Below are positions 19,051 to 50,728 of a DNA stretch of 64,000 bases, one piece after another. The translations under genes and the position numbers were made by a program. Source of the stretch: Bacilli bacterium (lineage in GTDB: Bacteria; Bacillota_I; Bacilli_A; RFN20; CAG-826); NCBI GenBank assembly GCA_017635465.1, contig JAGBLL010000036.1, positions 76,078 through 140,077 on the forward strand. The letters are read 5' to 3'. Numbering within the stretch: the first letter of the stretch is position 1; each line of letters starts with the position of its first letter. The notes under the pieces are model-generated. The model was not told the DNA's origin, ran no database searches, and saw nothing but the letters and a program-made list of their open reading frames with translations.

Positions 19051-22000
19051 ATGCATTATTTATTAATCCTAGATTCTTTCTGGGATAAAGAAATTGCCGC
19101 AGGCTATACCCTTAGGTCAATATTCGAATATTGGTGGATTGGGTTAATTATTATCATTGTTGCGGCGATAGCGCTAGTGGGTACATATTTCTTACTCAAC
19201 TGGCTTTTTGGTCGTATGAAATTTAAAAGTGGCGATCAAGAAGCAGTTGATAATTATGTCAAAGCGCCTAAACAAGAAAAGAAAGAGATTGCTAAAAACA
19301 CAACTGGTGCCGCTAAAAACGTCATCACTTGGAAAAGAATGAGAGTCTGGCTTATCCCAGTAGTGTGTGTTGTGGCGTTATTATCTTCCGCGGCTGCATC
19401 ATTCTTACCTTCCGCTGCTTTTGCTAACTTGATCTTTACTCTTCGTGGTAGTCATGTTGACATCATCGATACAGAAACATCAAGGCAAGCTGCTGCTGAA
19501 GCTGAAAAGAATGTTGTTACTGTGCAAGAAGAAGGTACTGTCTTACTTAAAAATAAAGACAATGCCTTACCACTAGATGTGAACACAAATAAGAAAATTA
19601 ATATCTTTGGTTCATGTGCTTATGGCCTTTTCTTCAATAATGGTGGCTCTGGTGCGTTCCAAACTGATGGTAGAGTTAAGAATTTTCCAAGAACCGCGGT
19701 TAAATTAGAAGAAGCACTTGTGGAAGAAGGCTTTGAAATTAACAATAATTTATTTAACTTGGTTAAAAATTACTATAACGGCAAGAAAGTTTCTGTCGCG
19801 GAAAGTGATTATAAGATTTTCTGTGGCATTAATACATTTGGTTATCCAGAAATCGTTCCTTCTGGTAATGGCGCAAAACTTGATCCAATTGATTATGAAC
19901 TTCCAGTCAGTGCTTATGAAACCGCTTTTAATGAATTAGGTGGTAAGACCGCTCTTGAAGATGCAAAAGCATTCTCAGATACCGCAATATTTGCAATTAC
20001 GCGACACGGTACTGAAAGTGCGGATATGAAATATTCAGAATTAAAGCTTACTAATGCTGAATCCGCCGCTATTGAAATGCTTAAAGCGAATTTTGGTAAA
20101 GTTATTATCTTATTCAATGTTCCAACAGTCGTGGAATCAGAATTCTTAGATGATCCAGAAATAAGCGCTGCTTTATTTATTGGTCATCCAGGTTTAACTG
20201 GCACAAAAGCTATCGCCGAAATCATTTCTGGTAAAGTTAATCCTTCTGGCAAATTAGTGGATACATGGCCATACGATGTTAAAAGCGCACCATCTTACCA
20301 ATGCTTTGGTAACGATACCACATTAACTTATAATTCTGGTGCCGCTAATAGAGCGAAATTCCTTAATTATATTGAAGGTATTTATGTTGGTTATAGATAT
20401 TATGTGACTCGTGCGATGGTTGATGCTGATTATAAATATGAAGATGCAGTCCAATATTCGTTCGGTCATGGCTTAAGCTATACAACATTTGATAAATCTA
20501 TCGCTGAATATAAAGTTGATACAAAAGAACAAAAAGTATCTGTCACTGTTGAAGTGGAAAACACTGGTGCAGTCGCAGGTAAAGATGTCATTGAACTTTA
20601 TACTCACGCTCCATATACACCAGGTGGTATTGAAAAATCATGGTACTCATTAACTGCCTTCCAAAAGACAAATATCATCGAACCAGGTGAAACCAAGGCC
20701 TACAAACTAGAATTTAGTTTTAGAGATATTGCTTCTTGGTCAACTGAAAAAGGCTATTACGTTTTAGAAAAAGGCGATTATGAATTCTCCATTAGAGACA
20801 ATGTTTGGGATATCGCCAAAACAAACAAAAATAATCGTGAAAACGCTAAAACAATGAACCTTGAAGAAGATGTTGAATTCAAAACTTCTTACCAAACTGG
20901 TAAAGCTTATGAAAATATCTTCCAAGAAGTTGAATTTGGTGGTGGTACTGAAAAGAATAAATACTTATCTAGAAATGACTTTGCGGGCACATGGCAAAAT
21001 AAAGCTGACATCCCATTAGCGTCAAACGCTGAAAAGAGTCATTTCCCAGGTGGTCCAAGTAACTCTACATCTTCAAGTTCATTTACATTTCAAGACAATC
21101 AAATTGATGAAGAAACTAAACCACAAGATGTTCCTGCTGGCTTAACTTTAAGAGATTTAAAAGATGCAGCATGGGATGATCCACGTTGGGAAGACTTACT
21201 TAGTCAAATGTCTTTATCAGATATGGATAAATTAGTCGAATATGGTGGTTTCCAAACTGCAGCGATTGATAGTATCGGTAAAACCGCGACCGTTGACTAC
21301 GATGGTCCAAGCGCGGCTTTCCATTCAGGCACAGGTCACCCAAGTGAAGTTATCGTTGCCTGTTCATGGTCAACTGACGTCGCTAGAGTTATGGGTGAAT
21401 CAATTGGTAGAGAAGGCGCCGCTAGAGGCTTAACTGGCTGGTATGCTCCTGGTATCAATACCCATCGTTCACCATTTGGTGGCAGAAACTTTGAATATTA
21501 TTCAGAAGATCCATTAATTTCAGGTCTTATGGCGGGATATACTGCGCAAGGCACAATGAAATATGGTGTTTATACATACGCTAAGCACTTTATGTGCAAC
21601 GACCAAGAATATAACCGTGCTGGTGTCTTTGTTTGGGCAACCGAACAAGCACTTAGAGAAATCTATGCCCGTGGCTTTGAACTTTATAGTGATTTAGGCG
21701 GCATGGGTATGATGTCTGCTTACAATAGCATCGGTTCTTGGTGGTGTGGTGGTAGTGAAGCCTTATTAACAAAATTATTAAGAGAAGAATGGGGCTTCCA
21801 TGGTGTTGTCGTTACTGACTACGCTGGTAGTGATTACATGGCAACGCACATCGGCTTAAGAGCAGGTAATGACATGTGGTTAACTCCTAGCCAATTACCA
21901 GCCGCTATTAAACCTTCAAGAGTGCGTTCGGCTTGCCCACATGATGGCGCAATCCTTGTGAGAAGAGCGGCGAAAAATATCCTCTTTGCCTGCGCTCATA

Positions 22001-22077
22001 GCAACAATGTCTGGAATGAGGAAGATTATGCTGCTGTTGACATTCCAGAAATCGTCAAGGCCGGCGATGGTCATTAA
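19051..22077 (+). CDS. GH3 beta-glycosidase 1, permuted domain order, two N-terminal TM segments
   Basis: EEGTVLLKN and VNPSGKLVDT (sandwich domain) come first, then EGIYVGYRY/FnIII-like, then GRNFEYYSEDP, KHF and VVTDY (barrel, nucleophile Asp). Confidence 0.9.
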   Translation: MHYLLILDSFWDKEIAAGYTLRSIFEYWWIGLIIIIVAAIALVGTYFLLNWLFGRMKFKSGDQEAVDNYVKAPKQEKKEIAKNTTGAAKNVITWKRMRVWLIPVVCVVALLSSAAASFLPSAAFANLIFTLRGSHVDIIDTETSRQAAAEAEKNVVTVQEEGTVLLKNKDNALPLDVNTNKKINIFGSCAYGLFFNNGGSGAFQTDGRVKNFPRTAVKLEEALVEEGFEINNNLFNLVKNYYNGKKVSVAESDYKIFCGINTFGYPEIVPSGNGAKLDPIDYELPVSAYETAFNELGGKTALEDAKAFSDTAIFAITRHGTESADMKYSELKLTNAESAAIEMLKANFGKVIILFNVPTVVESEFLDDPEISAALFIGHPGLTGTKAIAEIISGKVNPSGKLVDTWPYDVKSAPSYQCFGNDTTLTYNSGAANRAKFLNYIEGIYVGYRYYVTRAMVDADYKYEDAVQYSFGHGLSYTTFDKSIAEYKVDTKEQKVSVTVEVENTGAVAGKDVIELYTHAPYTPGGIEKSWYSLTAFQKTNIIEPGETKAYKLEFSFRDIASWSTEKGYYVLEKGDYEFSIRDNVWDIAKTNKNNRENAKTMNLEEDVEFKTSYQTGKAYENIFQEVEFGGGTEKNKYLSRNDFAGTWQNKADIPLASNAEKSHFPGGPSNSTSSSSFTFQDNQIDEETKPQDVPAGLTLRDLKDAAWDDPRWEDLLSQMSLSDMDKLVEYGGFQTAAIDSIGKTATVDYDGPSAAFHSGTGHPSEVIVACSWSTDVARVMGESIGREGAARGLTGWYAPGINTHRSPFGGRNFEYYSEDPLISGLMAGYTAQGTMKYGVYTYAKHFMCNDQEYNRAGVFVWATEQALREIYARGFELYSDLGGMGMMSAYNSIGSWWCGGSEALLTKLLREEWGFHGVVVTDYAGSDYMATHIGLRAGNDMWLTPSQLPAAIKPSRVRSACPHDGAILVRRAAKNILFACAHSNNVWNEEDYAAVDIPEIVKAGDGH

Positions 22078-22299: not shown

Positions 22300-25293
22300 A
22301 TGAATTTACCTATCTTAGAGTCTTTCTTTGATAAGCCATTAATTGCTGGTTATTCCCTTGCCTCCATTTTCCAATATTGGTGGGTCGGCTTAATCATCAT
22401 TATCGTGGCTGCGGTAGCTCTCGTTGGTGTCTATTTCCTTCTCAACTGGCTCTTTGGCCGTATGAGATTCAAAGAAGGCGACAAAGAAGCTTTAAAAGCT
22501 TATGACCAAGCTCCACGCGCTGAAAAGAAAGAAGCTGCTAAGTCAGCAAAAGGTCCAGTGAAAAATGTTATCACTTGGAAGAGAATGAGGGGTTGGTTAA
22601 TTCCAGTAGTGTGTGTTGTCGCATTATTATCATCCGCGGCGGCATCATTCTTACCATCCAACGCATTCCAAAACTTATTAACAACATTAAAAGGTAGTGC
22701 TGTTGAAATTATTGATACACCTACCTCAAAAGAAGCTGCTGCTCAAGCAGAAAAGAACGTCGTGTCCATTCAAGAAGAAGGCACAGTTCTCTTAAAGAAC
22801 AAAAACAAATCCTTACCACTCAACTTAGAAACCAATAAGAAAGTTAACATCTTTGGTTCATGTGCTTTCGGTTTATTCTATGGTAATGGTGGTTCTGGTT
22901 CCTTCCAAACTGATGGTCGTGTTAAATCCTTCCCAAGAACTGCTTTAAAACTTGAACAAGCAATGAAAGATGAAGGCTTCGAAATTAACGAAAACATCTT
23001 CAACATGATCAAGAATTACTATTCTAGTAATAAGAGAACAATCTCTGTTGCCCCATCAGATTACGATATTCAATGTGGTTTCAACAAATACAACTACTCT
23101 GAAATCGTTTCTAGTAAGGCTCCATATGATTATGAACCTCCAGTTTCTGCTTATGAAACACCATTTGATGAATTAGGTGGTAAAACATTATTAGAAGATG
23201 CTTTAGACTTCTCTGATACCGCTATCTTCTGTATCACAAGACGTGGTTCCGAAGACGAAGATATGAACCTCAGAGATTTACAACTCAAATCTAACGAAAT
23301 CGCTGCTATCGAAATGCTCGAAGAGAACTTTGAAAAAGTCATTATCTTATTAAACGTTCCAACAGTTATCGAATCCGAATTCTTAGATGACACAGAAATC
23401 GACGCCGCTGTTTATATGGGTCACCCAGGTTTAACTGGTACCAAAGCAGTTGCCGAAATTCTCGCCGGTAAAGTCAACCCATCCGGTCACTTAGTTGACA
23501 CATGGCCATATGATGTTAAGAGTGCTCCATCTTACCAAAACTTTGGTAATGACACCACATTAACATATACTTCTGGTGCGGCTAATAGAGCTAAATTCAC
23601 CAACTACCAAGAAGGTATCTATGTTGGTTACAGATACTATGTTACCGCCGCTAAAGCTGGCTATATCGATTACAATGATGAAGTTCAATTCTCATTCGGT
23701 CACGGCTTAAGTTATACAACATTTGATAAATCCATCGCTGAATTCAAAGTGGATGAAGCAAATCAAAAAGTTGAAGTCACAGTCGAAGTTAAGAATACTG
23801 GTGAAGTCGCTGGTAAAGATGTTATCCAACTCTATACCCACGCTCCATATATCCCAGGTGGTATTGAAAAATCATATTATTCCTTAACTGCTTTCCAAAA
23901 GACAAACGTCATCGAACCAGGTGAAACAAAAGCTTACAAATTAGAATTCTCATTCAGAGACATCGCTTCTTGGAGCACCGCTAAAGGTTACTATGTCTTA
24001 GAAAAAGGCGAATACGAATTCTCCGTTAGAGAAAACGTTTGGGATCTTGCTAAGACAGACGTTAAAGGTAGAGAAAACGCTAAGATTTTCGATCTAAAAG
24101 AAGAAGTCGAATTCAAGAAATCTTACCAAACAGGTAAAGAATACGCCAACATCTTCCAAGATGTCGAATTCGGTGGTACAGATACAAAGAACGTCTACGT
24201 TTCTAGAAACGATTTCGCAGGTACAATTCAAAAAACCGCTGATATCAATAGAGCATCTGCCGCTGACGCAAGTCATTTCCCAGGTGGTGCCTCTAACCAA
24301 ACAGCTGGTCGTTCATTCTCATATCAAGACAACCAAATCGAAGGTGAATTAAGAGAACAAGGTAAAGACAATGGTCTCAAATTCAATGATTTCAAGAATG
24401 CAGCATGGGATGATCCACGCTGGGAAAATTTAATTGACCAAATGTCCATTAAAGATTTACAAGATATCGTTGACCAAGGTTCCTTCAAAACCGCTAAGAT
24501 TGATAGCATCGGCAAAGCCGGTACAACTGACTACGATGGTCCTGGTGCGGCCTTCCACTCTGGTACAGGTCACCCAAGTGAAGTTGTCGTTGCCTGTTCA
24601 TGGGATTTAGAAACCGCTAAAGTTATGGGCGAATCCATCGGTAGAGAAGGTGCTTCCCGTGGCTTAACAGGTTGGTATGCTCCTGGTATCAATACTCACC
24701 GTTCACCATTCGGTGGTAGAAACTTCGAATATTATTCAGAAGATCCACTCATCGCTGGTTTAATGGCTGGTTACACCTCTCAAGGTGCTGCTAAATACGG
24801 TGTCTATTGTTATGCCAAACACTTCTTATGTAACGAACAAGAAAATAGCCGTGCTGGTGTCTTCGTTTGGGCAAGCGAACAAGCATTAAGAGAAATCTAT
24901 GCTCGTGGCTTCGAAATCTACGTTGACTTAGGTGGTTTAGGCCTCATGTCCTCCTTCAACTGTGTCGGTTCCTGGTGGGCTGGTGGTAATGAAGCTTTAT
25001 TAACAACTCTCTTAAGAGAAGAATGGGGCTTCCACGGTGTCGTCGTTACAGACTATGCTGGTCCAGACTACATGGCCACAAATATCGGCTTAAGAGCTGG
25101 TAATGACTTATGGTTAAATAAAGCTGGTTATGCTGCTAGCAATACATATAGCGCTACTCCACATGATGCTACAATCCTCATGAGAAGAGCTGCTAAGAAC
25201 ATCCTCTACGCCTGCGCTCACTCCAACAACGTTTGGACAGCAGAAGACTACAAGGCTGTCGGTATTGACGAAGTTGTCAAAACAAATAGCTAA
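22300..25293 (+). CDS. GH3 beta-glycosidase 2, tandem paralog of GH3-1
   Basis: Collinear with GH3-1 and shares long identical stretches; KHF and VVTDY intact. Start at ATG 22300 behind aaaggag, matching the GH3-1 N-terminus. Confidence 0.9.
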   Translation: MNLPILESFFDKPLIAGYSLASIFQYWWVGLIIIIVAAVALVGVYFLLNWLFGRMRFKEGDKEALKAYDQAPRAEKKEAAKSAKGPVKNVITWKRMRGWLIPVVCVVALLSSAAASFLPSNAFQNLLTTLKGSAVEIIDTPTSKEAAAQAEKNVVSIQEEGTVLLKNKNKSLPLNLETNKKVNIFGSCAFGLFYGNGGSGSFQTDGRVKSFPRTALKLEQAMKDEGFEINENIFNMIKNYYSSNKRTISVAPSDYDIQCGFNKYNYSEIVSSKAPYDYEPPVSAYETPFDELGGKTLLEDALDFSDTAIFCITRRGSEDEDMNLRDLQLKSNEIAAIEMLEENFEKVIILLNVPTVIESEFLDDTEIDAAVYMGHPGLTGTKAVAEILAGKVNPSGHLVDTWPYDVKSAPSYQNFGNDTTLTYTSGAANRAKFTNYQEGIYVGYRYYVTAAKAGYIDYNDEVQFSFGHGLSYTTFDKSIAEFKVDEANQKVEVTVEVKNTGEVAGKDVIQLYTHAPYIPGGIEKSYYSLTAFQKTNVIEPGETKAYKLEFSFRDIASWSTAKGYYVLEKGEYEFSVRENVWDLAKTDVKGRENAKIFDLKEEVEFKKSYQTGKEYANIFQDVEFGGTDTKNVYVSRNDFAGTIQKTADINRASAADASHFPGGASNQTAGRSFSYQDNQIEGELREQGKDNGLKFNDFKNAAWDDPRWENLIDQMSIKDLQDIVDQGSFKTAKIDSIGKAGTTDYDGPGAAFHSGTGHPSEVVVACSWDLETAKVMGESIGREGASRGLTGWYAPGINTHRSPFGGRNFEYYSEDPLIAGLMAGYTSQGAAKYGVYCYAKHFLCNEQENSRAGVFVWASEQALREIYARGFEIYVDLGGLGLMSSFNCVGSWWAGGNEALLTTLLREEWGFHGVVVTDYAGPDYMATNIGLRAGNDLWLNKAGYAASNTYSATPHDATILMRRAAKNILYACAHSNNVWTAEDYKAVGIDEVVKTNS

Positions 25294-25388: not shown

Positions 25389-26117
25389 ATGAGCGAAACA
25401 TACATCAATATTGCTGTCGTGGAAGATTCCGCTGACGATTTAAACAATTGCTTGGCTTTACTAGATCGCTATAGTAATGAAAAGCATCTAAAATTTGACA
25501 TCCAAACATTCAATAGTGGCGATGCGTTTTTAATGCGTTTCAAAAGCCAATATGACTTCATCATTTTAGACATCAACTTGTCCTCACTTAATGGCATTGA
25601 TGTGGCAAGAACGATTAGAGAAAAAGATGAAGAAGTAATTATTATGTTCGCTACCAATTTAGCAAAATATGCGACTTCTGGTTATGAAGTCGACGCTATA
25701 GACTTTGTATTAAAGCCCTTATCCTATGCTTCTTTCTATTTGAGACTAGAAAGAGTGATGAAAAAGTTAAAGAAGAAAGATGACTTCTTCATCGTTGTAC
25801 CATTCGAAGGTGGCTTTAACAAAATTAATATTAATGATGTCCTCTATGTTGAAGTTATATCTCATGACATAATCTTCCATCTAGTGGATGGTAATGAGAT
25901 TACAACCTCAGGCACATTGAAGAAATACGAAGAGGAATTAAAAAAGCATTGGTTCATTAGATGCAATTCCTGCTATCTAGTTAACGCTCATAAAATTAAA
26001 CGCGTTGAAAAACTTGATATCCAATTAACTAATGACGAAACCATTGCGATCTCTCACCCAAAAAGAAAAGGTTTTATGGAAGCCTTTAAGAAATACATTA
26101 TTGAAGAAGGCAAATAG
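25389..26117 (+). CDS. LytTR-family response regulator 1
   Basis: Receiver motifs VVED, ILDI and KP; C-terminal LytTR FIRCNSCYLVN. Confidence 0.92.
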   Translation: MSETYINIAVVEDSADDLNNCLALLDRYSNEKHLKFDIQTFNSGDAFLMRFKSQYDFIILDINLSSLNGIDVARTIREKDEEVIIMFATNLAKYATSGYEVDAIDFVLKPLSYASFYLRLERVMKKLKKKDDFFIVVPFEGGFNKININDVLYVEVISHDIIFHLVDGNEITTSGTLKKYEEELKKHWFIRCNSCYLVNAHKIKRVEKLDIQLTNDETIAISHPKRKGFMEAFKKYIIEEGK

Positions 26118-27524: not shown

Positions 27525-27559
27525 TGTAAGATTATGCATAAATGATGTAAACTTACGCA
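27525..27559 (+). promoter_or_regulatory. Candidate LytTR box (type 1) upstream of the lipoprotein operon
   Basis: tgtaagattatgca (27525) and tgtaaacttacgca (27546), 21-bp period. Confidence 0.65.
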
Positions 27560-27754
27560 AGATATATTTTTTATTGTTTTATTCTGCTTTATGATGTTCT
27601 CGAATCAAAAATACTTGGCAAATCTTTTTATTCGCGGTTTTATTCTTGTGATTTGAAGACTTGTTAAAGTATGACACATAAAATGCTTATTTATTAAGAA
27701 GGAATAGTTCTATCCTCTTAGTAAAACTCATTTTTTGAGAAAGGAAAAAACATA

Positions 27755-31045: not shown

Positions 31046-31098
31046 ATAAAATTCCTTTCTGTAGAAGGGGCGCAGCGCTTGAGCGCCCCTTTTATTTT
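31046..31098 (+). terminator. 3' element copy B: anti-SD tract plus GC hairpin terminator
   Basis: ataaaattcctttct then aggggcgc ... gcgcccct-tttatttt. Confidence 0.75.
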
Positions 31099-38821: not shown

Positions 38822-39403
38822 TTAATCATGATATTCATTATTTTTAAGAGAACTAACACCGTTTTTAATTAAATTAGTTATTAACTGTATCATATCTTCT
38901 TTTGGCATTGCTCTTTTTGTTTTAATCCAGCTACCATACATTGAACTAACACTCATATGATAGTGTTTGAAGACGATACTTTGTACCATTGGATCTAAAT
39001 GAGAAAAAGTGTGAAGCATTTCTTTTTCTTTTAAAAGGATTAACGCGCGTTTTCTTGATAACTCCTTAGTATAGAAATAAGTATCCGTGGAGTTTATTTT
39101 TTGATAAACAGGATTACTTTCGTTTAAATCAAAAAACGCCCTTACAACTGTCTCTACATCTTCCAACAGATTAATACCTCTAACGCGTTGATAAAAGCCT
39201 TTTATCGCTTCTTCTTGTAACTCAACAAAGATATCATCAAGTTGCTTATAATGTAAATAAAAGGTTCTTCTATTAAAACCGGCGGTATCACATAATTCTT
39301 TAACAGTGATTTTTAAATAGTCATCGTAATCAAGTATTAACTTTTTAAAAGCTTCTTTAAAATGTTTTTTTGTTTTTTGGACGCGTGGATCTAGTTCGTT
39401 CAT
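38822..39403 (-). CDS. TetR/AcrR-family transcriptional regulator
   Basis: DPRVQKTK...ITVKELCDTAGFNRRTFYLHY HTH; divergent from the 39734 operon. Confidence 0.92.
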   Translation of the reverse strand: MNELDPRVQKTKKHFKEAFKKLILDYDDYLKITVKELCDTAGFNRRTFYLHYKQLDDIFVELQEEAIKGFYQRVRGINLLEDVETVVRAFFDLNESNPVYQKINSTDTYFYTKELSRKRALILLKEKEMLHTFSHLDPMVQSIVFKHYHMSVSSMYGSWIKTKRAMPKEDMIQLITNLIKNGVSSLKNNEYHD

Positions 39404-42700: not shown

Positions 42701-43882
42701 ACATTACGTGATGGTAAAGGTGGTGTCCGTGATGGTCTTAAAGCAGAAGATGTCATTCCAGAATCTCCAACTCAATACTACGCTATCCGTATGGCCGCTA
42801 CATATATCTGCTGGGTTGGCGCAAACTCCAACGCCATTCAAAATGGTGTCACAACAGTTGGTGCTACAGGCAATACAACAACAGCCGCTAACATCTTCTC
42901 ATTTGATAATGAACAAACAATTAGATATGGTAATCAAGTTGAAATCGATGTCAACGCTGATGCTAAACACATTCCATCAGATTGCTCTGTGAGATATGAA
43001 ATCGCCGGTAACTTACCAGAAGGCTTATCTTTCAATGCTTCCACAGGAAAAATCGTTGGTAGTGCTACAGCTCTTGGTACATACAATGTGACAGTTAGAG
43101 CAATTATTGATAATTACATTTTAAGAACAGCTTCATTAAGAGTTAATGTTGGCCCAACAGCCCAAGTTAACGAAACTGTTTACTTAACACCAACCATTTA
43201 TAAAGTCGGTGATCACTATCAAAATAACCCAACATATGAAATTACTGTTGCTAATGAACCAACAGTCAGTGGCTTCGAAGGCGCTGAAATCGTTACTTTA
43301 GATGCAGAAGCCGCTACTGCTTTAGGATTAGAAGCTGGTACATATATCAAATTATCTTCTGCTGAAGCTGGTTTATTTAACATCCGAGTCAGTCAAGCAA
43401 TCACATATAAAAGAAACGCTTGGCAAACAAGAAATGCTACTGTTACTACAGACTATAGCATCATGATCGGTACTCCAGAAGTTACTCCAGATCCAGTTGT
43501 CCATGGTGGTATTGTTACTTCCGTTATCAACGATCAAGGTCACTTAGTTATTACTTACGAAGATGGCACAGTCGCTGATTTAGGCTTAGTAGTTGGTGCA
43601 AACGGTCAAGACGGCGCACAAGGTCCTGCTGGCCCAGCCGGTGAAAAGGGTGATACAGGCGCACAAGGTCCTGCTGGCCCAGCCGGTGCTGACGGTAAAG
43701 ATGGTGCACAAGGTCCTGCTGGCCCAGCCGGTGCTGACGGTAAAGATGGCGTTGACGGTAAAGATGGTACTTCCGCAAAAGGTTGTGGTGGCTCTATCGT
43801 TGCTACATCAGGCGTCATGGCATTATTCGCCGGTTTAGGCATTGCCATTATCTCTCTCAAGAGATCCAAAAAAGATAACTAA
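39734..43882 (+). CDS. Secreted GH3 beta-glycosidase 4 with He_PIG-like Ig domain, collagen stalk and C-terminal anchor
   Basis: Sec-type signal peptide without Cys; permuted GH3 (RIGGEGDD, GRNFEYYS, MKHY, SVTDY); LPEGLSFNASTGKIVGS; 20 Gly-X-Y triplets; KGCGGS + TM helix + KRSKK tail. Confidence 0.9.
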   Translation: MDKKQKKNVKVLTGVLALAAGMAIASATSAAPSYASFAGEQKGKFYPDFSTYAEEQEFAGNLNVKLMQESITLLKNKDDALPLAKGSNISLLGTHSYRPFLGGTGSGSIGGSFATLPDSLTEAGLNLNAAIADYYEAHDYKSNVCVQGMFTSASQSVDGPAEEVAQLKNTFQLYGDAAVITLGRIGGEGDDLLRNQVGTSGNIKVNQDVTKHSLELFDTEKDLIELAKQHCDKVIILINSANAMEIPELEDDPDIDAIVWIGQPGETGLKGVGPVLVGDVAPSGKLADVWPADFKKDPTWFNFGNNQQNNAYDAESQQFASEYANTVTKKEGSTVANGTRYALEEEEGIYLGYKWYETAAADDVLDKIAIYEAEKGVIPEDKDGDKYYNRSTGVVYPFGFGLSYTQFTKQFVSTAEQIKAAVNASSSLESSIPVKVKVTNTGTVAGKEVVQLYNHAPYTLNGIEKAEVSLAGFAKTDLLRPGKSQVVTVDVRVGDLASFDYNDANANGFSGWEIEAGNYGLRLQDNSHDCLAELELALNAKEFKKDGSAATGLTESENYNVLSKGDDYDTLLPIKKHEADKDGVTFKLMTRSNLVSSFPTAPKAEERVYPDVVLALLTNSNQRSGVSSYSEGDEGYDQWAKYYRYTGYFNGSDDLPTDPWYKTNADIPASWTQLATARQSGTQTEVLIQQMSGLDFNSDRIVPEGHPYAGSTEAEAWNKFMNQLTYAELAAFVQNGGYRTPGLNAIGKKQSGDQDGPAQLKGTRNGGDFVTNFNQAGTPWCCEVNIASSWNVDLAHKQGLCVGNESLFNGSNGWYGPAMNIHRSPFSGRNFEYYSQDGVHSGIIAGAVVSGAQSKGCNVFMKHYALNDQETNRMDGIATYNSEQAIRENILKPFEYATKVGHATAVMTAFNRSGSIPAFANYMFNEEILRQEWGFMGESVTDYYSASMGKGNYLQRGGCHMALNGNLNYNTNVTGTSTNTNAITGIWDATLRDGKGGVRDGLKAEDVIPESPTQYYAIRMAATYICWVGANSNAIQNGVTTVGATGNTTTAANIFSFDNEQTIRYGNQVEIDVNADAKHIPSDCSVRYEIAGNLPEGLSFNASTGKIVGSATALGTYNVTVRAIIDNYILRTASLRVNVGPTAQVNETVYLTPTIYKVGDHYQNNPTYEITVANEPTVSGFEGAEIVTLDAEAATALGLEAGTYIKLSSAEAGLFNIRVSQAITYKRNAWQTRNATVTTDYSIMIGTPEVTPDPVVHGGIVTSVINDQGHLVITYEDGTVADLGLVVGANGQDGAQGPAGPAGEKGDTGAQGPAGPAGADGKDGAQGPAGPAGADGKDGVDGKDGTSAKGCGGSIVATSGVMALFAGLGIAIISLKRSKKDN
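43595..43774 (+). repeat. Collagen-like (Gly-X-Y)20 coding repeat
   Basis: GAN GQD GAQ GPA GPA GEK GDT ... GTS; three copies of gcacaaggtcctgctggcccagccggtg at 45-bp period. Confidence 0.95.
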
Positions 43883-44004: not shown

Positions 44005-45039
44005 ATGAAAATCAACAAATTATTAGGTTTGACTTTGCTCTTGAGTTCCATGACAATCTCTGCTTGTAGTGGTAAAGCTTCCTCTAACGAAGAAAAGAAA
44101 CCATCAAGTGCTACACCTAGCGTTGTTGAACCAAGTTCGAATACATCGTCAAGTTCAGTTGTTCAACCAAGTTCAAACAGCGCTCCTAAATCAAGCTCAA
44201 GCAGCACTCCTAAATCAAGTTCTAGCGCTCAACCAAGTTCAAACAGTGCTCCTAAATCAAGCTCAAGCGCTCAACCAAGTTCAAATTCTCAACAAAGTTC
44301 ACAAAGCAGTAGTGGCTCTAATGTCGATCAATATCTTTTGAAACACGCTGAAGGTCAAACTGCTAATTATATTTTTGAAGCTGAATGTACAGACTTAAGA
44401 GGTAAAAGTGGCTCTGGATATTCTGGTGGTGCAACCGGTTCAGGTTTAGCTACTCATAATGCTTCAGACATTTCATTTGTCACTTTCTTATATACAGAAG
44501 GAATCTCTGTTAATTTCTTCGTCGCATGTGATAGAGATGTCAGCGACGCTAAATTAAGAGCGAGATTCGGTGGCGAATTTATTCATGTCTTACTAAGTCC
44601 AGATAATTACACAATTCGTGTTGACCAAGCCATTGATTCTGCTTTCCTTACAGACTATGACCCTGATAATTTAGATTCTGATGGTTCATTAGGAAACTGG
44701 GATTCATTCTTCCTTAACTATTACAGTGTTGAAGAAACAAATGGCTATTTCCTTAGCGAATGGGAATGCGAAAGTATCGATATTGATGCTTCTAATCAAA
44801 GCGATGTTGTCGGATGGAATACTTTCGATATCACATTTGCTCTTTCTCTTAAACAAGGCATCAATTGCATCTCATTAATTACTGATAATGAAGAAATTAC
44901 AGGCGATGCTCCTCATGGCACAATGACCGCAACAGCACCTGTTATTGACTATATTTCCATTGAAACAAGTGCTCAATTAGGTGTTTTTAACGCAAAAGAT
45001 AATGGCGAAGGTGAAAATGCTGTTCACTTCGCTGCCTAA
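44005..45039 (+). CDS. Lipoprotein with Ser-rich linker and CBM6/35-like module
   Basis: Start at ATG 44005 (gaggg SD); lipobox ISAC; repeated QPSSNSAPKSSSS; YIFEAE...LKQGIN...APVIDYISIE pattern. Confidence 0.7.
   Translation: MKINKLLGLTLLLSSMTISACSGKASSNEEKKPSSATPSVVEPSSNTSSSSVVQPSSNSAPKSSSSSTPKSSSSAQPSSNSAPKSSSSAQPSSNSQQSSQSSSGSNVDQYLLKHAEGQTANYIFEAECTDLRGKSGSGYSGGATGSGLATHNASDISFVTFLYTEGISVNFFVACDRDVSDAKLRARFGGEFIHVLLSPDNYTIRVDQAIDSAFLTDYDPDNLDSDGSLGNWDSFFLNYYSVEETNGYFLSEWECESIDIDASNQSDVVGWNTFDITFALSLKQGINCISLITDNEEITGDAPHGTMTATAPVIDYISIETSAQLGVFNAKDNGEGENAVHFAA
44101..44320 (+). repeat. Ser/Pro-rich linker repeat
   Basis: Near-tandem caaccaagttcaaacagYgctcctaaatcaagctcaagc units. Confidence 0.85.
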
Positions 45040-45058: not shown

Positions 45059-48040
45059 ATGGGTATTAGAAAAAGTGGATTAATTCCATGGGCAATTACT
45101 ACAGCTGTTTTAACTGGTGTATTAATTACCGCTAACGTTCTTTTAACAGGACCTTTAAAAGGTATTGTTTCTACCGCTTTAAGTGATAGAGGCAGAATGG
45201 AACTCATTAATGAAGATGGTTCTAGATTTAAACTAGATGAAGGTATTACTGATAAAGCATCTGCTAAAGAAAATGGTAATAAAACAAACATTAATATTGT
45301 TCGTGAAGGTATTACACTTCTTAAAAACAAGGATAATAACGCTCTTCCATTAGCAAAAGGAGCTAAATTATCTATCTTTGGTAAGAATTCGTCTAATGTC
45401 GCTATTGGTGGATCTGGCTCTGGTAGTGCTTCTACTGATGGTATGATTGATTTCTTCTCTTCACTAGAAAAAGCAGGTTTTACATACAATCCTACGTTAA
45501 AAGCTTTCTATGATGATAATACAAAATCTGGGGCAGGTAGAGATAAAAACAACAAAGACTTAGATAGTGGTAAACCTATCGAATTAGTGGAATCTTATGT
45601 TGGTGAAACCGAAATCACTGCTTATACAGATGATATTTGGAATAGCTGTAATGAATATAAAGACGCTGCTTTAATTATGATTACACGTATCGGTGGTGAA
45701 GGTGCTGATTTACCAAGAACACCAACTGATCATATTTTAAAATTACGTCCAGCGGAAAAAGACTTAATTAACAAAGTCAAGACAATGGGTTTTGGTAAAG
45801 TAGTATTAATGCTCAATACCGCGACATCATTAGAACTTGGCGATGTGCAAAAAGATGAAGGTGTTGATGCCATTTTATGGATTGGCTATGACGGTACAGC
45901 TGGTTTGACCGCTGTGGGTGAAGTCTTAAAAGGCGAAACTAATGATGGCGTTAAATTTTCTCCTTCTGGTAAAACAGTTGATATTTATCCAGCAGATTTT
46001 ACAAAAGATCCAACATGGAATAACTTTGGTGGTAACATCGGTGTTGTTTCTCAAGGTGAAGGTAGCAAGTACGTTGGTGTTTCTGGCGATTGTTATTACA
46101 CAATGGCCAAAAGAGGACCAGTTGATTCCCAAATCTATTTTGCCGACTATGAAGAAGGCATTTACTACGGTTATAGATATTATGAAACCGCCGCAGCGGA
46201 TGGCTATATCAACTATGATGAAGCCATTGTTTATCCGTTTGGTTATGGTTTGAGCTATACAAACTTCTCTTGGGAATTAAAGAATAAGGCTAGTATTCCT
46301 ACTACTTTAACAAAAGACACAAAGATGACTTTTGAAGTTGAAGTTACTAATACTGGTACATATCCAGGTAGAGATGTTGTTGAACTCTATGTCACACCAC
46401 ACTATAACGTTGGTGGTTTAGATAAAGCCGCTAAGATTCTTGTTGGCTTTGATAAAACAGAATTATTACAACCAGGTGAAAAAGAAACATTAAAGATTAC
46501 AATTGATTCACCATATTCATATGCTTCTTATGATTATAAAGGTGTTACTGGTCAAAAAGGCTATGTTGTTGAAGCAGGTAATTATTCTTTCACATTAGGT
46601 ACAGATAGCCATCACGCAAAAGAAATGTCTGATGCTGTTATAACCGCTAATGTTGCAGATAACATCCGCTATGAAAAAGATCCTATTACAGATAATGAGA
46701 TTAAAAATCTTTTCTCTGATAACGAAGATCCATATTTAAACGGGGACGCTCAACTTGGCTCAATTATGCACCGTAATGACTTTGCGGGAACATGGCCTCA
46801 AACAAGAAGTGAAAACGAAAAGAAAATCGGTGGTGAAAAGATTAAAGAAGGATGGGAAATCTCTTCTGATTGGATTAGCAAGATGAAGGATTATACTCCA
46901 AAGCCAAATAATCCTATCAATATTACTGAAATGCCAGTTACTGGTGCAGATAATGGCATTAAATTTACTGACTTAGTAATGTTAGATTACAATGACAAAA
47001 AATGGGACGAATTCATTGATCAATTAACTAAAGAAGAAATGAAGACATTGATTAATGAAGGTGCCTTTATCACTAGCGCAATTGCTAGATTAGGCGTTCC
47101 TCCAACCGATAATACCGATGGTCCAGTTGGTTGGGTCAACTTTATTGACCAGAAAACATTCACAGGCACATGTTCTTATTGCTGTGAAGTCGTTATCGCT
47201 TCCACATGGAATGTAGACCGTGTTTATGATATGGGTAGAGCAGTTGGTAACGAAGGTCTTGTTGGTAATACACAAAATTCGATCAATAGACCATATACTG
47301 GCTGGTACGCTCCAGGTCTTAATATTCACCGTTCTCCATTTGGTGGTAGAAACTTCGAATACTATTCAGAAGATCCATTCTTAAGTGGTATTTTAGCGGC
47401 TTCTATTTCTAAAGGTACTTGGTCAAAAGGCTGCTATACAACATTAAAGCACTTCGCGGTTAATGAAACCGAGACACATAGAATGGGCTTATTAACATGG
47501 CTTGATGAACAAAACTTAAGAGAAAACTATCTTAAAGGCTTTGAAATCGCTGTTAAAGGTGGAAATAGTGACTTGAATAATCACGAATACTTTGGCGAAG
47601 ATAAAGCCACAAAACCAGTTTCTGTTATGACTTCATTTAACAGAATTGGTGAAAGATGGACAGGTGGCGACTATCGCGTTAACACCCTCATCTTAAGAGA
47701 AGAATGGGGCTTTGAAGGATTTACAATCTGTGACTTCAACACCAATGAATTCATGGTGGAAAAAGATATGTTCTATTCCGGTGGTGACCTTAATTTACAA
47801 GGCGCCGGTAACGTATGGAATCCAGACTTTAGTAGTCCTAATGATGTTGAAGTTATGAAGAAATGTTCTAAAAACATCCTCTATGTTGTAGCAAATAGTA
47901 ATGCAGTTAGAGGTGAATTTAAAGTCCATATGCCAAATTGGCAAATCGGCTTATATATTGGAACAGGTGTAGTGGCCGCTGGATTATTAACTTGGGGCTT
48001 CTTCGTCTTCTTTAAAATCTTTAGACGCAAAACGAAGTAA
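45059..48040 (+). CDS. GH3 beta-glycosidase 5, permuted, with N- and C-terminal membrane helices
   Basis: EGITLLKN, RIGGEGAD, GRNFEYYSEDP, LKHF and TICDF motifs; C-terminal TM plus RRKTK. Confidence 0.9.
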   Translation: MGIRKSGLIPWAITTAVLTGVLITANVLLTGPLKGIVSTALSDRGRMELINEDGSRFKLDEGITDKASAKENGNKTNINIVREGITLLKNKDNNALPLAKGAKLSIFGKNSSNVAIGGSGSGSASTDGMIDFFSSLEKAGFTYNPTLKAFYDDNTKSGAGRDKNNKDLDSGKPIELVESYVGETEITAYTDDIWNSCNEYKDAALIMITRIGGEGADLPRTPTDHILKLRPAEKDLINKVKTMGFGKVVLMLNTATSLELGDVQKDEGVDAILWIGYDGTAGLTAVGEVLKGETNDGVKFSPSGKTVDIYPADFTKDPTWNNFGGNIGVVSQGEGSKYVGVSGDCYYTMAKRGPVDSQIYFADYEEGIYYGYRYYETAAADGYINYDEAIVYPFGYGLSYTNFSWELKNKASIPTTLTKDTKMTFEVEVTNTGTYPGRDVVELYVTPHYNVGGLDKAAKILVGFDKTELLQPGEKETLKITIDSPYSYASYDYKGVTGQKGYVVEAGNYSFTLGTDSHHAKEMSDAVITANVADNIRYEKDPITDNEIKNLFSDNEDPYLNGDAQLGSIMHRNDFAGTWPQTRSENEKKIGGEKIKEGWEISSDWISKMKDYTPKPNNPINITEMPVTGADNGIKFTDLVMLDYNDKKWDEFIDQLTKEEMKTLINEGAFITSAIARLGVPPTDNTDGPVGWVNFIDQKTFTGTCSYCCEVVIASTWNVDRVYDMGRAVGNEGLVGNTQNSINRPYTGWYAPGLNIHRSPFGGRNFEYYSEDPFLSGILAASISKGTWSKGCYTTLKHFAVNETETHRMGLLTWLDEQNLRENYLKGFEIAVKGGNSDLNNHEYFGEDKATKPVSVMTSFNRIGERWTGGDYRVNTLILREEWGFEGFTICDFNTNEFMVEKDMFYSGGDLNLQGAGNVWNPDFSSPNDVEVMKKCSKNILYVVANSNAVRGEFKVHMPNWQIGLYIGTGVVAAGLLTWGFFVFFKIFRRKTK

Positions 48041-48082
48041 AAGTATCTCAATAATTAAATAATTTAGATTACTTATTCACTT

Positions 48083-48122
48083 CATAAATTCCTTTTTATA
48101 GAGGGGCGCTCTGGCGCCCTTC
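48083..48122 (+). terminator. 3' element copy D: anti-SD tract plus GC hairpin
   Basis: cataaattccttttt then gaggggcgc-tctg-gcgcccttc. Confidence 0.7.
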
Positions 48123-48140
48123 TTCCTTAAAAAGGTCAGA

Positions 48141-48190
48141 TTATGTTAAAAAATAGACATTTTATGTAACATTGTTTCAATGTTATTAAC
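48141..48190 (+). promoter_or_regulatory. 21-bp-period direct repeats upstream of GH3-6
   Basis: ttatgtta (48141), ttatgtaa (48162), ttattaac (48183); TATAAT at 48201. Confidence 0.4.
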
Positions 48191-48256
48191 GATATGTTAA
48201 TATAATAATGCAATTATTAAATATCAACGATAATACCTCAGGTTAAGGAGTTTTTT

Positions 48257-50728
48257 ATGGCTAGAAAACATCAAGATATAATTGATCAATTAACTTTAAA
48301 AGAAAAGGCAAGTCTCGTTAGTGGTAAAGATTTCTGGCAAACTGTCAACATTGACAGAGTTGGTATTCCAAGTGCTTTCCTTAGCGATGGCCCTCATGGC
48401 GTCAGAAGACAAGCCGCTGCTGCGGACCATTTAGGTTTAAACGCTTCCATTCCAGCGACATGTTATCCAACTGCTGCGACAATGGCCAATTCCTGGGACC
48501 CAGAATTAGGTGAAGGTTTAGGCCAAAGATTAGGTCAAGAAGCCGCTGTTCAAAAAGTTAACGTCTTATTAGGCCCTGGTATGAATATGAAGAGAAATCC
48601 ACTTTGTGGACGTAACTTCGAATACTTCTCAGAGGATCCTTATTTAGCAGGTAAAATGGCTGCAGGTTATGTTAGAGGTATCCAATCAAATGGTATCTCC
48701 GCTTGCGTTAAGCACTTTGCTTGTAATGACCAAGAAGAAAACAGAATGACATTAGATAGTGTTCTTGATGAAAGAACATTTAGAGAAATATATTTAACCG
48801 CTTTTGAAATTGCTGTTAAAGAAGGCAAGACAAAATCAATCATGTCTGCCTATAACTTAATCAACGGTGTTTACGCTAATGAAAATGAACACTTATTATG
48901 CGATATCCTTCGTAAAGAATGGGGCTTTGGTGGTTTAGTGGTCACTGACTGGGGTGGCAATAATGATGGTGTTTTATCACTTAAATGTGGTAACCAATTA
49001 GAAATGCCAGGTACACCAGATAGACCAGAAGAAGTTATTAAAGCGATTGAAAATGGTGAATTAGAAGAATCAGTTTTAGACGATAATCTTGATGTCTTAT
49101 TAGATACCATCTTCGATACAATGGAAAATGGTGTTAAGAAAGCACCTGAAAAATTCGATGTTGAAGAACATCATGCTTTCGCTGAAAAATGCGCGGAAGA
49201 AAGTGCTGTTCTTTTAAAGAATGATGGTGTCCTTCCATTAAAGAAAGAAGAAAAAGTAGCCTTTATTGGTGACTTCTTATATTTACCAAGATATCAAGGT
49301 GCGGGTTCATCTATCGTTAACCCAACAAAACTTGATAACACAGTTGATTTATTAAAGAATTTAGAACTCGATATCGTCGGTTCCGCACGTGGTTTTAATA
49401 GATATGGTAAGAAGAACAAAAAGCTCTTAAAAGAAGCCTTAGAATTAGCCGCAAAAGCGGATACAGTCGTCTTATATCTCGGTTTAGATGAAGTTACTGA
49501 AGCCGAAGGCTTAGATAGAAGTAACGCCAAGATTGAAAATAATCAAATCGAATTGGTTAAACAAGTTAAAGCTTTAGGTAAGAAAATCGTCGTTGTTCTC
49601 TCTTGTGGCTCCGCTGTTGAATTACCATTCGTTGATGATGTTGATGGTTTATTACATTGCTATTTAAACGGTCAAGCTGGTGCGCAAGCGACATTAAATA
49701 TCTTAGAAGGTAAAGTAAATCCTTCTGGTAAATTATCTGAAACATATCCAATCGTTTATGAAGATGTTGCTAGTAGTGATAATTTCCCAAGCCACACAAG
49801 AACAATCGAATATAGAGAAGCTTATGGTATCGGCTATAGATATTTTGAAAAAGCCAATGTGGAGACAAGATTCCCATTCGGCTTCGGTCTTAGCTATACA
49901 AAATTTGAATATTCAAATATCAAAATAAGCGATAAGGGTGTCAATTTCGAAATCAAAAACGTCGGTGATGTCGATGGTAAAGAAATTGCTCAATTATATG
50001 TTGGCTTAAAGAACAGCGTTGTTATTAGACCAGTCAAAGAATTAAAAGGCTTCATTAAAGTCTTCTTAAAGGCTGGTGAATCTAAACGCGTTGAAATTCC
50101 ATTTGATGATAAGACATTTAGATACTTCAATACCAAAACAAATAAATGGGAAATCGAAAAAGGTATCTATGATATCTATGTCGGCGCTGCCGTCAATGAT
50201 ATCCGCTTAAGTGGTTATTTTGAACAAGAAGGCACAGGCGCTGAAGCACCATATAATATTGATGAATTACCAAATTATGCTTCTGGTAGATTAAGAAATG
50301 TTCCAGATGAAGAATTTGCGAAATTATTAGGTCATGAAATTCCTAATGGTGCACTTCCATTCTATAAGAAGAACAGAATGGTCATCGACTATAACACCAC
50401 ATTCAGTGAATTACGTTATTCTAAACGCTGGATTGGCCGTTTAGTGGGTAAAGCTATTCCTTGGTTCACAAGAGTGCTCCGCAAAATGGGTAATCGTGTC
50501 TTAGCGAATACATTAGTCATGGGTGTTGTCCATCAACCAATGAGAGGTATGTCAAGATTCTCTGGTGGTGGCCTCCGCATGAGCCAATTAGATGGCTTAA
50601 TCATGATTTTCAATGGCCACTTCTGGAAAGGTTTACATCACTTCAACAAAGAAGGGCGTAAATACAAGAAGATTGCTAAAGCCGAAAAGAAAGCACAAAA
50701 AGAAGCAGAAGCAGCTCAAAACAAATAG
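48257..50728 (+). CDS. GH3 beta-glucosidase 6, canonical domain order, cytoplasmic
   Basis: SDGPHGVR, GRNFEYFSEDP, VKHF and VVTDWGG first, then ESAVLLKN, EAEGLDR and an FnIII-like domain; no signal peptide. Confidence 0.93.
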   Translation: MARKHQDIIDQLTLKEKASLVSGKDFWQTVNIDRVGIPSAFLSDGPHGVRRQAAAADHLGLNASIPATCYPTAATMANSWDPELGEGLGQRLGQEAAVQKVNVLLGPGMNMKRNPLCGRNFEYFSEDPYLAGKMAAGYVRGIQSNGISACVKHFACNDQEENRMTLDSVLDERTFREIYLTAFEIAVKEGKTKSIMSAYNLINGVYANENEHLLCDILRKEWGFGGLVVTDWGGNNDGVLSLKCGNQLEMPGTPDRPEEVIKAIENGELEESVLDDNLDVLLDTIFDTMENGVKKAPEKFDVEEHHAFAEKCAEESAVLLKNDGVLPLKKEEKVAFIGDFLYLPRYQGAGSSIVNPTKLDNTVDLLKNLELDIVGSARGFNRYGKKNKKLLKEALELAAKADTVVLYLGLDEVTEAEGLDRSNAKIENNQIELVKQVKALGKKIVVVLSCGSAVELPFVDDVDGLLHCYLNGQAGAQATLNILEGKVNPSGKLSETYPIVYEDVASSDNFPSHTRTIEYREAYGIGYRYFEKANVETRFPFGFGLSYTKFEYSNIKISDKGVNFEIKNVGDVDGKEIAQLYVGLKNSVVIRPVKELKGFIKVFLKAGESKRVEIPFDDKTFRYFNTKTNKWEIEKGIYDIYVGAAVNDIRLSGYFEQEGTGAEAPYNIDELPNYASGRLRNVPDEEFAKLLGHEIPNGALPFYKKNRMVIDYNTTFSELRYSKRWIGRLVGKAIPWFTRVLRKMGNRVLANTLVMGVVHQPMRGMSRFSGGGLRMSQLDGLIMIFNGHFWKGLHHFNKEGRKYKKIAKAEKKAQKEAEAAQNK

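Follow-up and report, generated by a model that had tools for sequence, protein, structure and literature searches.

Glycoside hydrolases of family 3 (GH3) with a circularly permuted domain order form a subfamily with solved structures, 5k6l and 5wug (PMC5104943, PMC11233000). A Gram-positive polysaccharide utilization locus (gpPUL) has been defined as an enzyme gene together with a carbohydrate transporter and a regulator (Sheridan et al. 2016, PMC5320581). Here we analyzed a 32-kb GH3 region within a 64,000-nucleotide stretch of DNA, the window (G000:C14:76078-140077), from the draft genome (1.83 Mb, 137 contigs, 94.9% complete) of a small-genome, uncultured bacterium of the rumen, labeled Bacilli or Erysipelotrichaceae. 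The region is bounded by htpG (16931-18901) and an acyl-ligase gene (50746), and the chromosomal site extends from htpG to ppdK. It probably consists of three self-contained, separately regulated cassettes at this recombination-prone site, serving surface capture, deacylation and exo-cleavage.

As in gpPULs, which show strain-level variation and nutritional specialization (PMC5320581), genes for glycoside hydrolases, an esterase and regulators are clustered here. The regulators of gpPULs are AraC, LacI and similar proteins (PMC5320581), whereas those of the region are two LytTR systems and a weak TetR-like match. Of degrading enzymes, at least one of which for polysaccharide is part of the gpPUL definition, the region holds exo-acting GH3s and an esterase, with no endo-enzyme. 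Since no transporter gene lies in the locus, it falls outside the gpPUL definition.

Gene content and cassette structure

Sixteen open reading frames (ORFs) run from htpG to the acyl-ligase gene, 15 of them on the + strand and with short gaps. By Pfam they include six GH3 genes, two pairs of a HATPase_c_5 kinase and a receiver-LytTR regulator, four lipobox proteins and one minus-strand TetR-like gene. No ATP-binding cassette (ABC), phosphotransferase system (PTS), major facilitator superfamily (MFS) or endo-glycanase family was found by Pfam among the region ORFs of at least 100 amino acids, and the intergenic DNA of the region held no further convincing ORF. The features are as follows (window positions, strand, description).

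19051..22077, +: GH3-A, permuted GH3, two N-terminal transmembrane (TM) helices
22143..22173, +: direct repeat of LytTR type 5' of GH3-B, GGTTATGC, 13 nt, GTTATGCA; 21-nt period
22300..25293, +: GH3-B, permuted GH3, two N-terminal TM helices; the ORF opens at 22147
25389..26117, +: RR1, response regulator, DNA-binding domain of LytTR type
26120..27454, +: HK1, polytopic histidine kinase, HATPase_c_5, AgrC-like
27530..27560, +: direct repeat of LytTR type 5' of Lpp1, a block kept in 10/10 aligned sequences
27755..29344, +: Lpp1, lipoprotein, Big_2 and a beta-sandwich like carbohydrate-binding module (CBM) families 6/35
29410..31017, +: Est, lipoprotein with Big_2, EstA Ig-like domain and alpha/beta-hydrolase (GCSNG)
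31049..31097, +: terminator element copy 1, left junction of the 17-kb indel
31176..32546, +: HK2, AgrC-like kinase; repeat GTCCCA, 15 nt, TCCCAA just 5'
32521..33273, +: RR2, LytTR response regulator
33425..35050, +: Lpp3, lipoprotein, Gly/Gln/Pro-rich linker, Big_2, C-terminal part without assigned domain
35062..35712, +: 4-TM protein of a YPGWQ-loop family, fused to GH3-C here via CAG at 35710-35712
35725..38730, +: GH3-C proper, permuted GH3, N-terminal anchor and C-terminal TM helix
38745..38790, +: terminator element copy 2, junction of cassettes 2 and 3
38822..39403, -: TetR-like regulator, weak match, divergent from GH3-D
39691-39705: palindrome TACGCGTATCGCGTA, between the TetR-like gene and GH3-D
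39734..43882, +: GH3-D, permuted GH3 with signal peptide, He_PIG, collagen repeats and KGCGG-TM-basic tail
44005..45039, +: Lpp4, lipoprotein, Ser-rich linker, CBM35-like domain; the ORF opens at 43921
45059..48040, +: GH3-E, permuted GH3, N-terminal anchor and C-terminal TM helix
48086..48130, +: terminator element copy 3, right junction of the indel
48139..48201, +: GH3-F promoter region, TTATG half-sites 21 nt apart and the palindrome ATTAACGATATGTTAAT at 48185-48201
48257..50728, +: GH3-F, GH3 in canonical domain order, no TM helix

Judged by gene order and conservation, the 32 kb appear to be three cassettes stacked at one variable site, each with its own terminators and regulators. Cassette 1 (GH3-A and GH3-B, RR1-HK1, Lpp1, Est and the cytoplasmic GH3-F) recurs in many relatives, and cassette 2 (HK2-RR2, Lpp3, the 4-TM protein and GH3-C) in five other genomes. 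Cassette 3 comprises the TetR-like gene, GH3-D, Lpp4 and GH3-E. The synteny set consisted of the 17 closest loci, found with the esterase. In ten of these, RR1-HK1-Lpp1-Est were adjacent (L001, L003-L008, L010, L016, L017), and in three more the four genes stood in a rearranged order (L012, L013, L015). Est was followed directly by GH3-F in 5/17 loci (L001, L002, L003, L007, L008), and by HK2-RR2-(Lpp3)-GH3-C and then GH3-F in 3/17 (L004, L005, L017). Cassette 3 was present in 0/17. Cassette 2 was also found off this site in G101 and G211, which belong to two other genera, in unrelated surroundings and with the 4-TM gene apart from the GH3 gene.

The junctions were defined by sequences that lack part of the region. 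L001 has 95% DNA identity to the window over 11.7 kb and is without window positions 31098-48085, 31097 being followed by 48086. In DNA contigs from runs of two other studies, 31097 was joined to 48244, with 17,146 bases skipped; in the same runs Est and GH3-F had high depth, which dropped to near zero in the interval separating the two. G035, a well assembled genome of the same genus, carries only GH3-A, a B/C hybrid GH3 and GH3-F between htpG and ppdK. Of the hybrid (L074:9260-11515), the first 38% of the length, from the N-terminus, matches GH3-B and the last 35%, at the C-terminus, matches GH3-C. Such a gene could have arisen when two paralogues recombined, in a deletion that would have taken out both two-component systems, Lpp1, Est and Lpp3. 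A 45-nt terminator-like element (AAAWTCCTTT, a short hairpin and GGGGCGC...GCGCCCC) lies at 31049, 38745 and 48086; these three junction copies are all that the genome holds, apart from a fourth, diverged one behind GH3-A at 22083. The short, the cassette-2-only and the full forms of the site would be explained if these direct repeats recombine with each other.

The initial annotation of the region, made from the sequence alone, is borne out as to its parts. The six GH3s had been credited with intact motifs, and the K-H motif, nucleophile Asp and acid/base Glu are all present. Transporter and endo-glycanase genes are absent from the inside of the region, as had been stated, and the cell-surface placement of the GH3s agrees with the outward orientation predicted below for the five permuted enzymes. 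For the four lipoproteins said to be built from Big_2, CBM6/35-like and esterase modules, lipoboxes (4/4), Big_2 (3/4), the esterase and a CBM6/35 fold of Lpp1 and Lpp4 were recovered, while the C-terminal 300 residues of Lpp3 carry no assignment. Both AgrC-like kinase/LytTR pairs stand; the TetR call is weak. What had been overlooked is that five of the six GH3s have the permuted, GlyA1-type domain order.

GH3 enzymes

Glyco_hydro_3_C (PF01915), Fn3-like and Glyco_hydro_3 (PF00933) domains were detected by Pfam in all six region GH3 genes; for the gene at 35062 the PF00933 match reached 26.3 bits against a cut-off of 27 (E 6e-6). Five of the six (19051, 22147, 35062, 39734 and 45059) have the circularly permuted order of alpha/beta sandwich, Fn3 and barrel. 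GH3-F (48257-50728) is the only one in canonical order and also the only one without a TM helix. Of the 16 GH3 genes in the genome, 15 are permuted, and five of these 15 lie in the region. The K-H motif, nucleophile Asp and acid/base Glu are intact throughout, in each of the 15 permuted enzymes as well as in the canonical one; the catalytic columns were anchored by alignments to 2x40 and 7ms2, with TnBgl3B residue numbers and identities taken from PMC11233000. GH3-A matched 5k6l (GlyA1, from a rumen metagenome) with E 8e-69 and 5wug (Paenibacillus barengoltzii) with E 3e-71, and its residues 302-622 align co-linearly to residues 123-428 of 5k6l. The nearest solved structure to GH3-F is 7ms2 (E 2e-190), and its best NCBIfam model is an exo-alpha-(1->6)-L-arabinopyranosidase, at 698 bits and thus below the 1300-bit cut-off.

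GH3-A and GH3-B are tandem paralogues with 73% amino-acid identity, and the other GH3 paralogues are about 30% identical. The five permuted enzymes of the region span four subfamilies, which are deeply divergent (about 30% mutual identity). From these values the GH3 paralogues of the genome, A and B excepted, appear to be old, and their age and diversity suggest that the island is part of a lineage-specific GH3 expansion rather than a local amplification. A quick tree placed GH3-D together with two genes from further upstream, both with a Cys-Gly tail like its own, and GH3-E next to a third gene from upstream. The C-terminus of GH3-D (43590-43882) consists of collagen Gly-X-Y repeats and a KGCGG-TM-basic tail, the same type of tail as in two upstream GH3s on the same contig. 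The 16 GH3 genes take about 2.7% of the genome DNA. Among 61 sampled genomes of the same family, no GH3 match was found in 20, one in most, and at least seven in only five, with 16 (this genome, the highest), 10, 8, 8 and 7 matches.

The catalytic domains of the five permuted region GH3s are predicted to face outward, based on signal-anchor helices, C-terminal TM helices with basic tails, and cytoplasmic loops rich in Lys and Arg. A C-terminal TM helix and basic tail were seen in 13 of the 15 permuted GH3s of the genome. The loop between the two N-terminal helices holds 12 Lys/Arg against 5 Asp/Glu in GH3-A and likewise in GH3-B, whose likely start is 22300 rather than 22147; this would put the short N-terminus and the catalytic domain of both enzymes outside. 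GH3-F, without a TM helix, is predicted to be cytoplasmic.

Lipoproteins and esterase

The model of Lpp1 (mean predicted local distance difference test, pLDDT, 83) shows a lipobox and linker, Big_2, a beta-sandwich, a further Big_2 and a second beta-sandwich. The C-terminal sandwich (residues 364-529) superposes on the CBM6 of CtXyl5A (5g56; Z 16.0, root-mean-square deviation (rmsd) 2.6 Å, 148 residues) and on the CBM35 3zm8 (Z 15.6, 1.9 Å over 123 residues), with about 20 more CBM6/35/36 entries at Z of at least 12. The middle sandwich matched 4qhx with Z 12.8. The Lpp4 model is weaker (pLDDT 59.8), with a disordered Ser-rich linker at residues 1-103. The best structural match of its residues 110-323 is the CBM35 2w46 (Z 10.1, rmsd 2.7 over 128 residues); Foldseek gave E of about 1e-3 to CBM35 modules, and language-model leads agree. 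Pfam CBM_6 and CBM_35 did not match Lpp1 or Lpp4 even at E up to 1, and the only Pfam hint of a CBM was a sub-threshold match of Lpp1 to the PL4 'CBM-like' domain (24.6 against 27 bits). The CBM6/35 assignment of Lpp1 and Lpp4 is thus supported by modeled fold only, and the models support CBM6/35-type folds in at least two non-catalytic lipoproteins. The N-terminus of Lpp1 also matched the NCBIfam model 'BLB8/JUQZ-1' (40.7 bits, cut-off 40), which we read as a signal/lipobox/linker match.

Lpp1 orthologues are 45-57% identical, against 70-90% for the flanking genes, and vary from 514 to 775 amino acids in length via extra domains. This fast divergence and length variation fits an exposed binding protein and suggests diversifying pressure on it. 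For Lpp4, 5.8 billion clustered proteins yielded only 19 relatives, all in metagenomes, and one of 300 other family genomes had a match, over the low-complexity N-terminus of Lpp4 alone. The linker of Lpp3 (33650-33920, lipobox to Big_2) is extended, repetitive and rich in Gly, Gln, Pro and Phe, with GGFPGG and QQGG repeats, and that of Lpp4 (44149-44280) is rich in Ser, Pro and Lys. A common partner family of the lipoproteins that adjoin GH3 genes throughout the genome was sought by all-against-all BLASTP, which gave Big_2/lipobox similarity only, and hhalign likewise returned only such similarity for a common family of Lpp1, Lpp3 and Lpp4; the idea of a shared family was rejected on these grounds.

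Est contains EstA_Ig_like (38.4 bits) and Abhydrolase_2 (32.5 bits) domains. Its GCSNG aligns with the GLSMG of Thermotoga maritima EstA (3doh), the nearest solved structure (E 1e-15). With an Ig-like N-terminal domain and an alpha/beta-hydrolase with G-x-S-x-G, it has the features of an EstA-like carboxylesterase.

The 4-TM protein and its fusion to GH3-C

The ORF at 35062 encodes 1222 amino acids and is a 217-codon 4-TM gene run into a 1001-amino-acid GH3 that is anchored at its N- and C-terminus; it has five N-terminal helices, with the loop charge alternating, and a C-terminal helix. The fusion comes from a single base, CAG at 35710-35712 in place of the TAG of L004 and L017. The ribosome site AGGAGGAG of GH3-C and its ATG at 35725 are intact. 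In all five relatives the 4-TM gene is separate, by an in-frame TAG in L004 and L017, by two frames in L005, and by a gap of 1-5 nt in G101 and G211. The fusion is hence a one-base change, which may be a strain polymorphism or an assembly error. GH3-C proper is predicted to be another enzyme anchored at both termini.

Residues 1-215 of the 4-TM part have only 20 representatives among 1.84 billion, and an ESM Atlas search with this part gave no usable match. Its full-length relatives are stand-alone proteins of 196-227 residues that have the outer-loop motif Y-P-G-W-Q in common. The tight coupling to GH3-C in five genomes, with the read-through here, argues for a functional pair. That the YPGWQ protein is the missing membrane partner, a component of a new kind that couples surface hydrolysis to sugar uptake or to signaling to the adjacent AgrC-like kinase, is a speculation we consider very unlikely; if it were true, the cassette would be sufficient in itself for binding and cutting, followed by import or sensing.

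Two more permuted GH3 genes, on other contigs, each have a gene for a small polytopic membrane protein 4-17 nt behind them (L068:8098-8520 and L073:492-1868), and these two membrane proteins share an N-terminal motif with each other. No homology of these proteins (contigs C26 and C38) to the 4-TM protein was detected, with hhalign probability at most 3.7% and no phmmer match.

Regulators and promoter repeats

A direct repeat with a 21-nt period and a consensus of about GRTTAYGC, 13 nt, TTAYG was found upstream of Lpp1, GH3-B and GH3-F; GH3-A has no such direct repeat upstream. We take this geometry to be that of LytTR operators. The Lpp1 repeat (27530) is kept in 10/10 aligned sequences (nine relatives and the window) while the surrounding DNA varies. 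The GH3-B repeat (22143) lies upstream of the orthologue in 8/9 relatives' loci and is also kept upstream of the hybrid GH3 of G035. The half-sites of GH3-F (48139) are kept in 9/9 aligned sequences (eight relatives and the window). A stricter form of the pattern has 20 matches genome-wide, of which only the two in this locus sit intergenic and upstream of a gene in this way. HK2 is preceded by a different repeat, GTCCCA, 15 nt, TCCCAA, in 4/4 aligned sequences, and a GTCCCT half-site stands after RR2, upstream of Lpp3, in three genera. By their position, the conserved repeats would tie each kinase pair to its neighboring genes, and each cassette appears to carry its own switch. At 48185-48201, the perfect palindrome ATTAACGATATGTTAAT overlaps the likely -10 element of GH3-F and is near-invariant in 9/9 aligned sequences. 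It is probably the operator of a second regulator.

The TetR-like gene scored 17.8 bits with TetR_N (cut-off 24), 17.0 with TetR_C_8 (26.1) and 33 with DhaS (129). The AgrA model scored 40.5 bits against a cut-off of 400, and neither AgrB/AgrD-like genes nor a peptide precursor were found in or between the region genes.

Transport genes, expression and neighboring genes

In the whole genome, no match to PTS EIIC was found, and all of its 14 ABC-permease and five MFS_2 matches are on other contigs. One locus elsewhere combines AraC, an oxidoreductase, GH94, two permeases, a binding protein and a GH123-like gene; others combine TetR, a GPH symporter and a GH36-like gene, or GalK, an MFS transporter and GH2. 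The organism hence uses ordinary, transporter-centered loci too, and the GH3 cassettes would be a second, transporter-less class. The genome also holds one GH5, one GH10 and GH43 genes. Its sole GH5 match (L071:1073-2389, contig C96) is one of three consecutive lipoproteins encoded immediately upstream of a further permuted GH3, and this cassette does hold an endo-type enzyme. Est (29.5-30.9 kb) and GH3-F (48.2-49.2 kb) were covered, with a likeness of 92-99%, by contigs from RNA libraries of two studies, and a GH3-D-like gene was covered in one RNA library.

Another variable module (50746-57295) begins 18 nt 3' of GH3-F. It comprises an AMP-dependent ligase, a leucine-rich-repeat lipoprotein, an 83-amino-acid membrane protein (54124-54375), a DltB-like MBOAT protein (137.8 bits, cut-off 375) and a 475-amino-acid membrane-anchored protein, and looks like a surface O-acylation system. 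The module is present in L001 and absent in L003, L008 and G035.

Interpretation and alternatives

The reading that we prefer, three stacked cassettes, builds on the gene content, domain order, catalytic residues, two lipoprotein folds, cassette conservation, junctions and promoter repeats of the region, and on the transporters elsewhere. In this model, each cassette would bring its own regulator, either one of the two AgrC-like kinase/LytTR pairs or the TetR-like protein; one or two lipoproteins whose domains are of Ig-like and CBM6/35 type, with the esterase added in cassette 1 and the 4-TM protein in cassette 2; and one or two permuted GH3 exo-glycosidases held on the outside of the membrane by terminal TM helices. 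Soluble oligosaccharides or glycosides would be retained at the cell surface by the lipoproteins, the esterase would take off acyl groups, and the anchored GH3s of four subfamilies would cut terminal sugars. The released mono- or disaccharides would be taken up by a small number of general ABC and GPH transporters whose genes lie elsewhere, and imported glycosides would be finished by GH3-F, which is conserved and cytoplasmic. The outward topology, glycan binding, substrates, pairing of regulators with repeats, and kinase signal in this scheme are all proposed rather than observed.

Several points weigh against this reading. The functions of the enzymes, binding proteins and regulators are all predictions from sequence or structure. 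The topology was derived from hydropathy and the positive-inside rule, not from a dedicated predictor, and having a CBM fold is no proof of binding. What AgrC-like/LytTR systems detect is usually a peptide rather than a sugar, and no signal is evident here. A conserved cytoplasmic GH3-F implies import of glycosides, so that part of the pathway would need a transporter. The position of cassette 3 comes from this one assembly. A simple consensus scan for promoters and terminators did not rise above shuffled controls, except for first-half terminators (17 against 10.5 ± 3.5 shuffled), and the scan was not used as evidence. Finally, the RNA libraries cover only Est, GH3-F and the GH3-D-like gene, possibly by DNA carry-over, and lend weak support; their gaps over cassette 2 and most of cassette 3 carry no information.

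An unlikely alternative concerns the substrate. The sugar that the cassettes harvest would come from secondary glycosides of plants (saponins and glycosides of flavonoid or phenolic type, partly acylated) instead of cell-wall oligosaccharides, leaving the hydrophobic aglycone outside, where the polytopic kinases and the TetR-like protein would sense it. Extracellular exo-enzymes with no oligosaccharide importer suit such a sugar-off, aglycone-left scheme, as do the esterase conserved in cassette 1, the sensors embedded in the membrane with hardly any outer loops, and the arabinopyranosidase model that GH3-F matched best, though below its cut-off (698 against 1300 bits). However, the usual ligands of CBM6/35 folds are polysaccharide chains or their termini, GH5, GH10, GH43 and GH94 genes are present in the genome as well, and the characterized permuted GH3s cleave gluco- and xylo-oligosaccharides (PMC5104943, PMC11233000).

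The initial annotation had read the whole 32 kb as one integrated surface platform, which in its strong form would serve one substrate class with parts selected together. All genes but one on one strand with short gaps, the common themes of GH3, Big_2/CBM lipoproteins and LytTR systems, and the single chromosomal site speak for it. Conservation of the gene combination in relatives had been named as the test, and the full combination was found in 0/17 close loci, while L001, the nearest genome, and the contigs of two other studies are without the 17 kb. G035 keeps three GH3 genes only, cassette 2 stands away from this site in G101 and G211, each cassette is bounded by terminators and regulators of its own, and the GH3 paralogues are about 30% identical. 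As a whole, the platform appears largely refuted by synteny, and we consider it quite unlikely, although cassettes 1 and 2 taken singly are conserved. A single regulon spanning the island was likewise rejected, because of synteny and the separate terminators. Other parts of that annotation fared better. Kinases that switch individual modules are in line with the conserved promoter repeats, by which each cassette appears to have its own switch, and an architecture unlike a transporter-centered locus agrees with its not being a gpPUL as defined in PMC5320581. Yet canonical transporter loci do exist elsewhere in the genome, and the functional logic is not without precedent, as the anchored exo-glycosidases of Bifidobacterium bifidum illustrate (PMC6109692).

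That assembly of the metagenome bin created cassette 3 or the 4-TM/GH3-C fusion, which would then be present as such in no real cell, is most improbable: the junctions do lie at a repeated 45-nt element in a 137-contig genome, cassette 3 is at this site in this contig only, and the fusion is one base away from all five relatives, but cassette 2 occupies the same junction in three independent assemblies, runs X1-X3 of one study hold 0.94-1.00 of the sampled words of 25300-35100 (X1 possibly being the source DNA), Lpp4 has 19 metagenome relatives, and 45 nt is short for a mis-join.

Comparison with known systems

The three-cassette reading can be set beside four described systems. With AgrC/AgrA (HPK10/LytTR) the regulators have in common a polytopic HATPase_c_5 kinase, a receiver-LytTR protein and putative operators that are imperfect direct repeats with a 21-nt period. 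They differ from it in having no AgrB/AgrD in the region and in their predicted targets, which are glycosidase and lipoprotein genes. Surface glycan-binding proteins (SGBPs) of Bacteroidota, such as SGBP-B of the Bacteroides ovatus MLGUL (6e57; Foldseek E 2e-8 to Lpp1), resemble Lpp1 as non-catalytic lipoproteins with tandem Ig-like domains and a glycan-binding domain beside glycosidases. Unlike them, the region has no SusC/SusD pair, belongs to a Gram-positive-type envelope and uses CBM6/35-fold binding domains.

Among the enzymes, GlyA1 (5K6L), the P. barengoltzii beta-glucosidase (5WUG) and BrGH3A have the same sandwich-Fn3-barrel order as the five permuted region GH3s, the sandwich supplying the acid/base Glu and the barrel the nucleophile Asp, and a rumen or gut origin is common to the subfamily and the region (PMC5104943). 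The characterized permuted GH3s are soluble, BrGH3A having no signal peptide (PMC11233000), and the word 'transmembrane' occurs in neither PMC5104943 nor PMC11233000. In contrast, the five region enzymes, of four subfamilies, are predicted to be membrane-anchored, mostly at both ends. In the literature searched, we found no description of membrane-anchored permuted GH3s, of permuted GH3s packaged with stand-alone CBM6/35 lipoproteins and a 4-TM partner in LytTR- or TetR-switched cassettes, or of repeat-mediated stacking of such cassettes. The enzyme type is thus known, as the permuted GH3 subfamily, and the transporter-free cassette layout is one for which no published description was found.

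What the locus adds is a view of GH3 genes as portable, individually switched cassettes, each with an anchored exo-glycosidase and a CBM lipoprotein, joined in cassette 2 by a 4-TM partner. Their presence or absence at the strain level could explain diet-linked strain shifts in the rumen. Its testable parts are the candidate operators of two LytTR systems with targets of a non-peptide type, the stand-alone CBM6/35 lipoproteins, the rare 4-TM family genetically tied to a glycosidase, and the membrane-bound permuted GH3s.

The layout points to a scavenger lifestyle, in which terminal sugars are stripped outside the cell and a few general importers are relied on. In this it is like Bifidobacterium bifidum, whose SiaBb2, LnbB and BbgIII trim glycans stepwise outside the cell while the small products are imported by systems encoded elsewhere (PMC6109692). 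The enzyme families and the phylum differ, and B. bifidum carries its CBMs on the enzymes themselves, whereas the region has them on separate lipoproteins. Nor is there in B. bifidum a cassette structure with a dedicated two-component system, as there is in the region described here.

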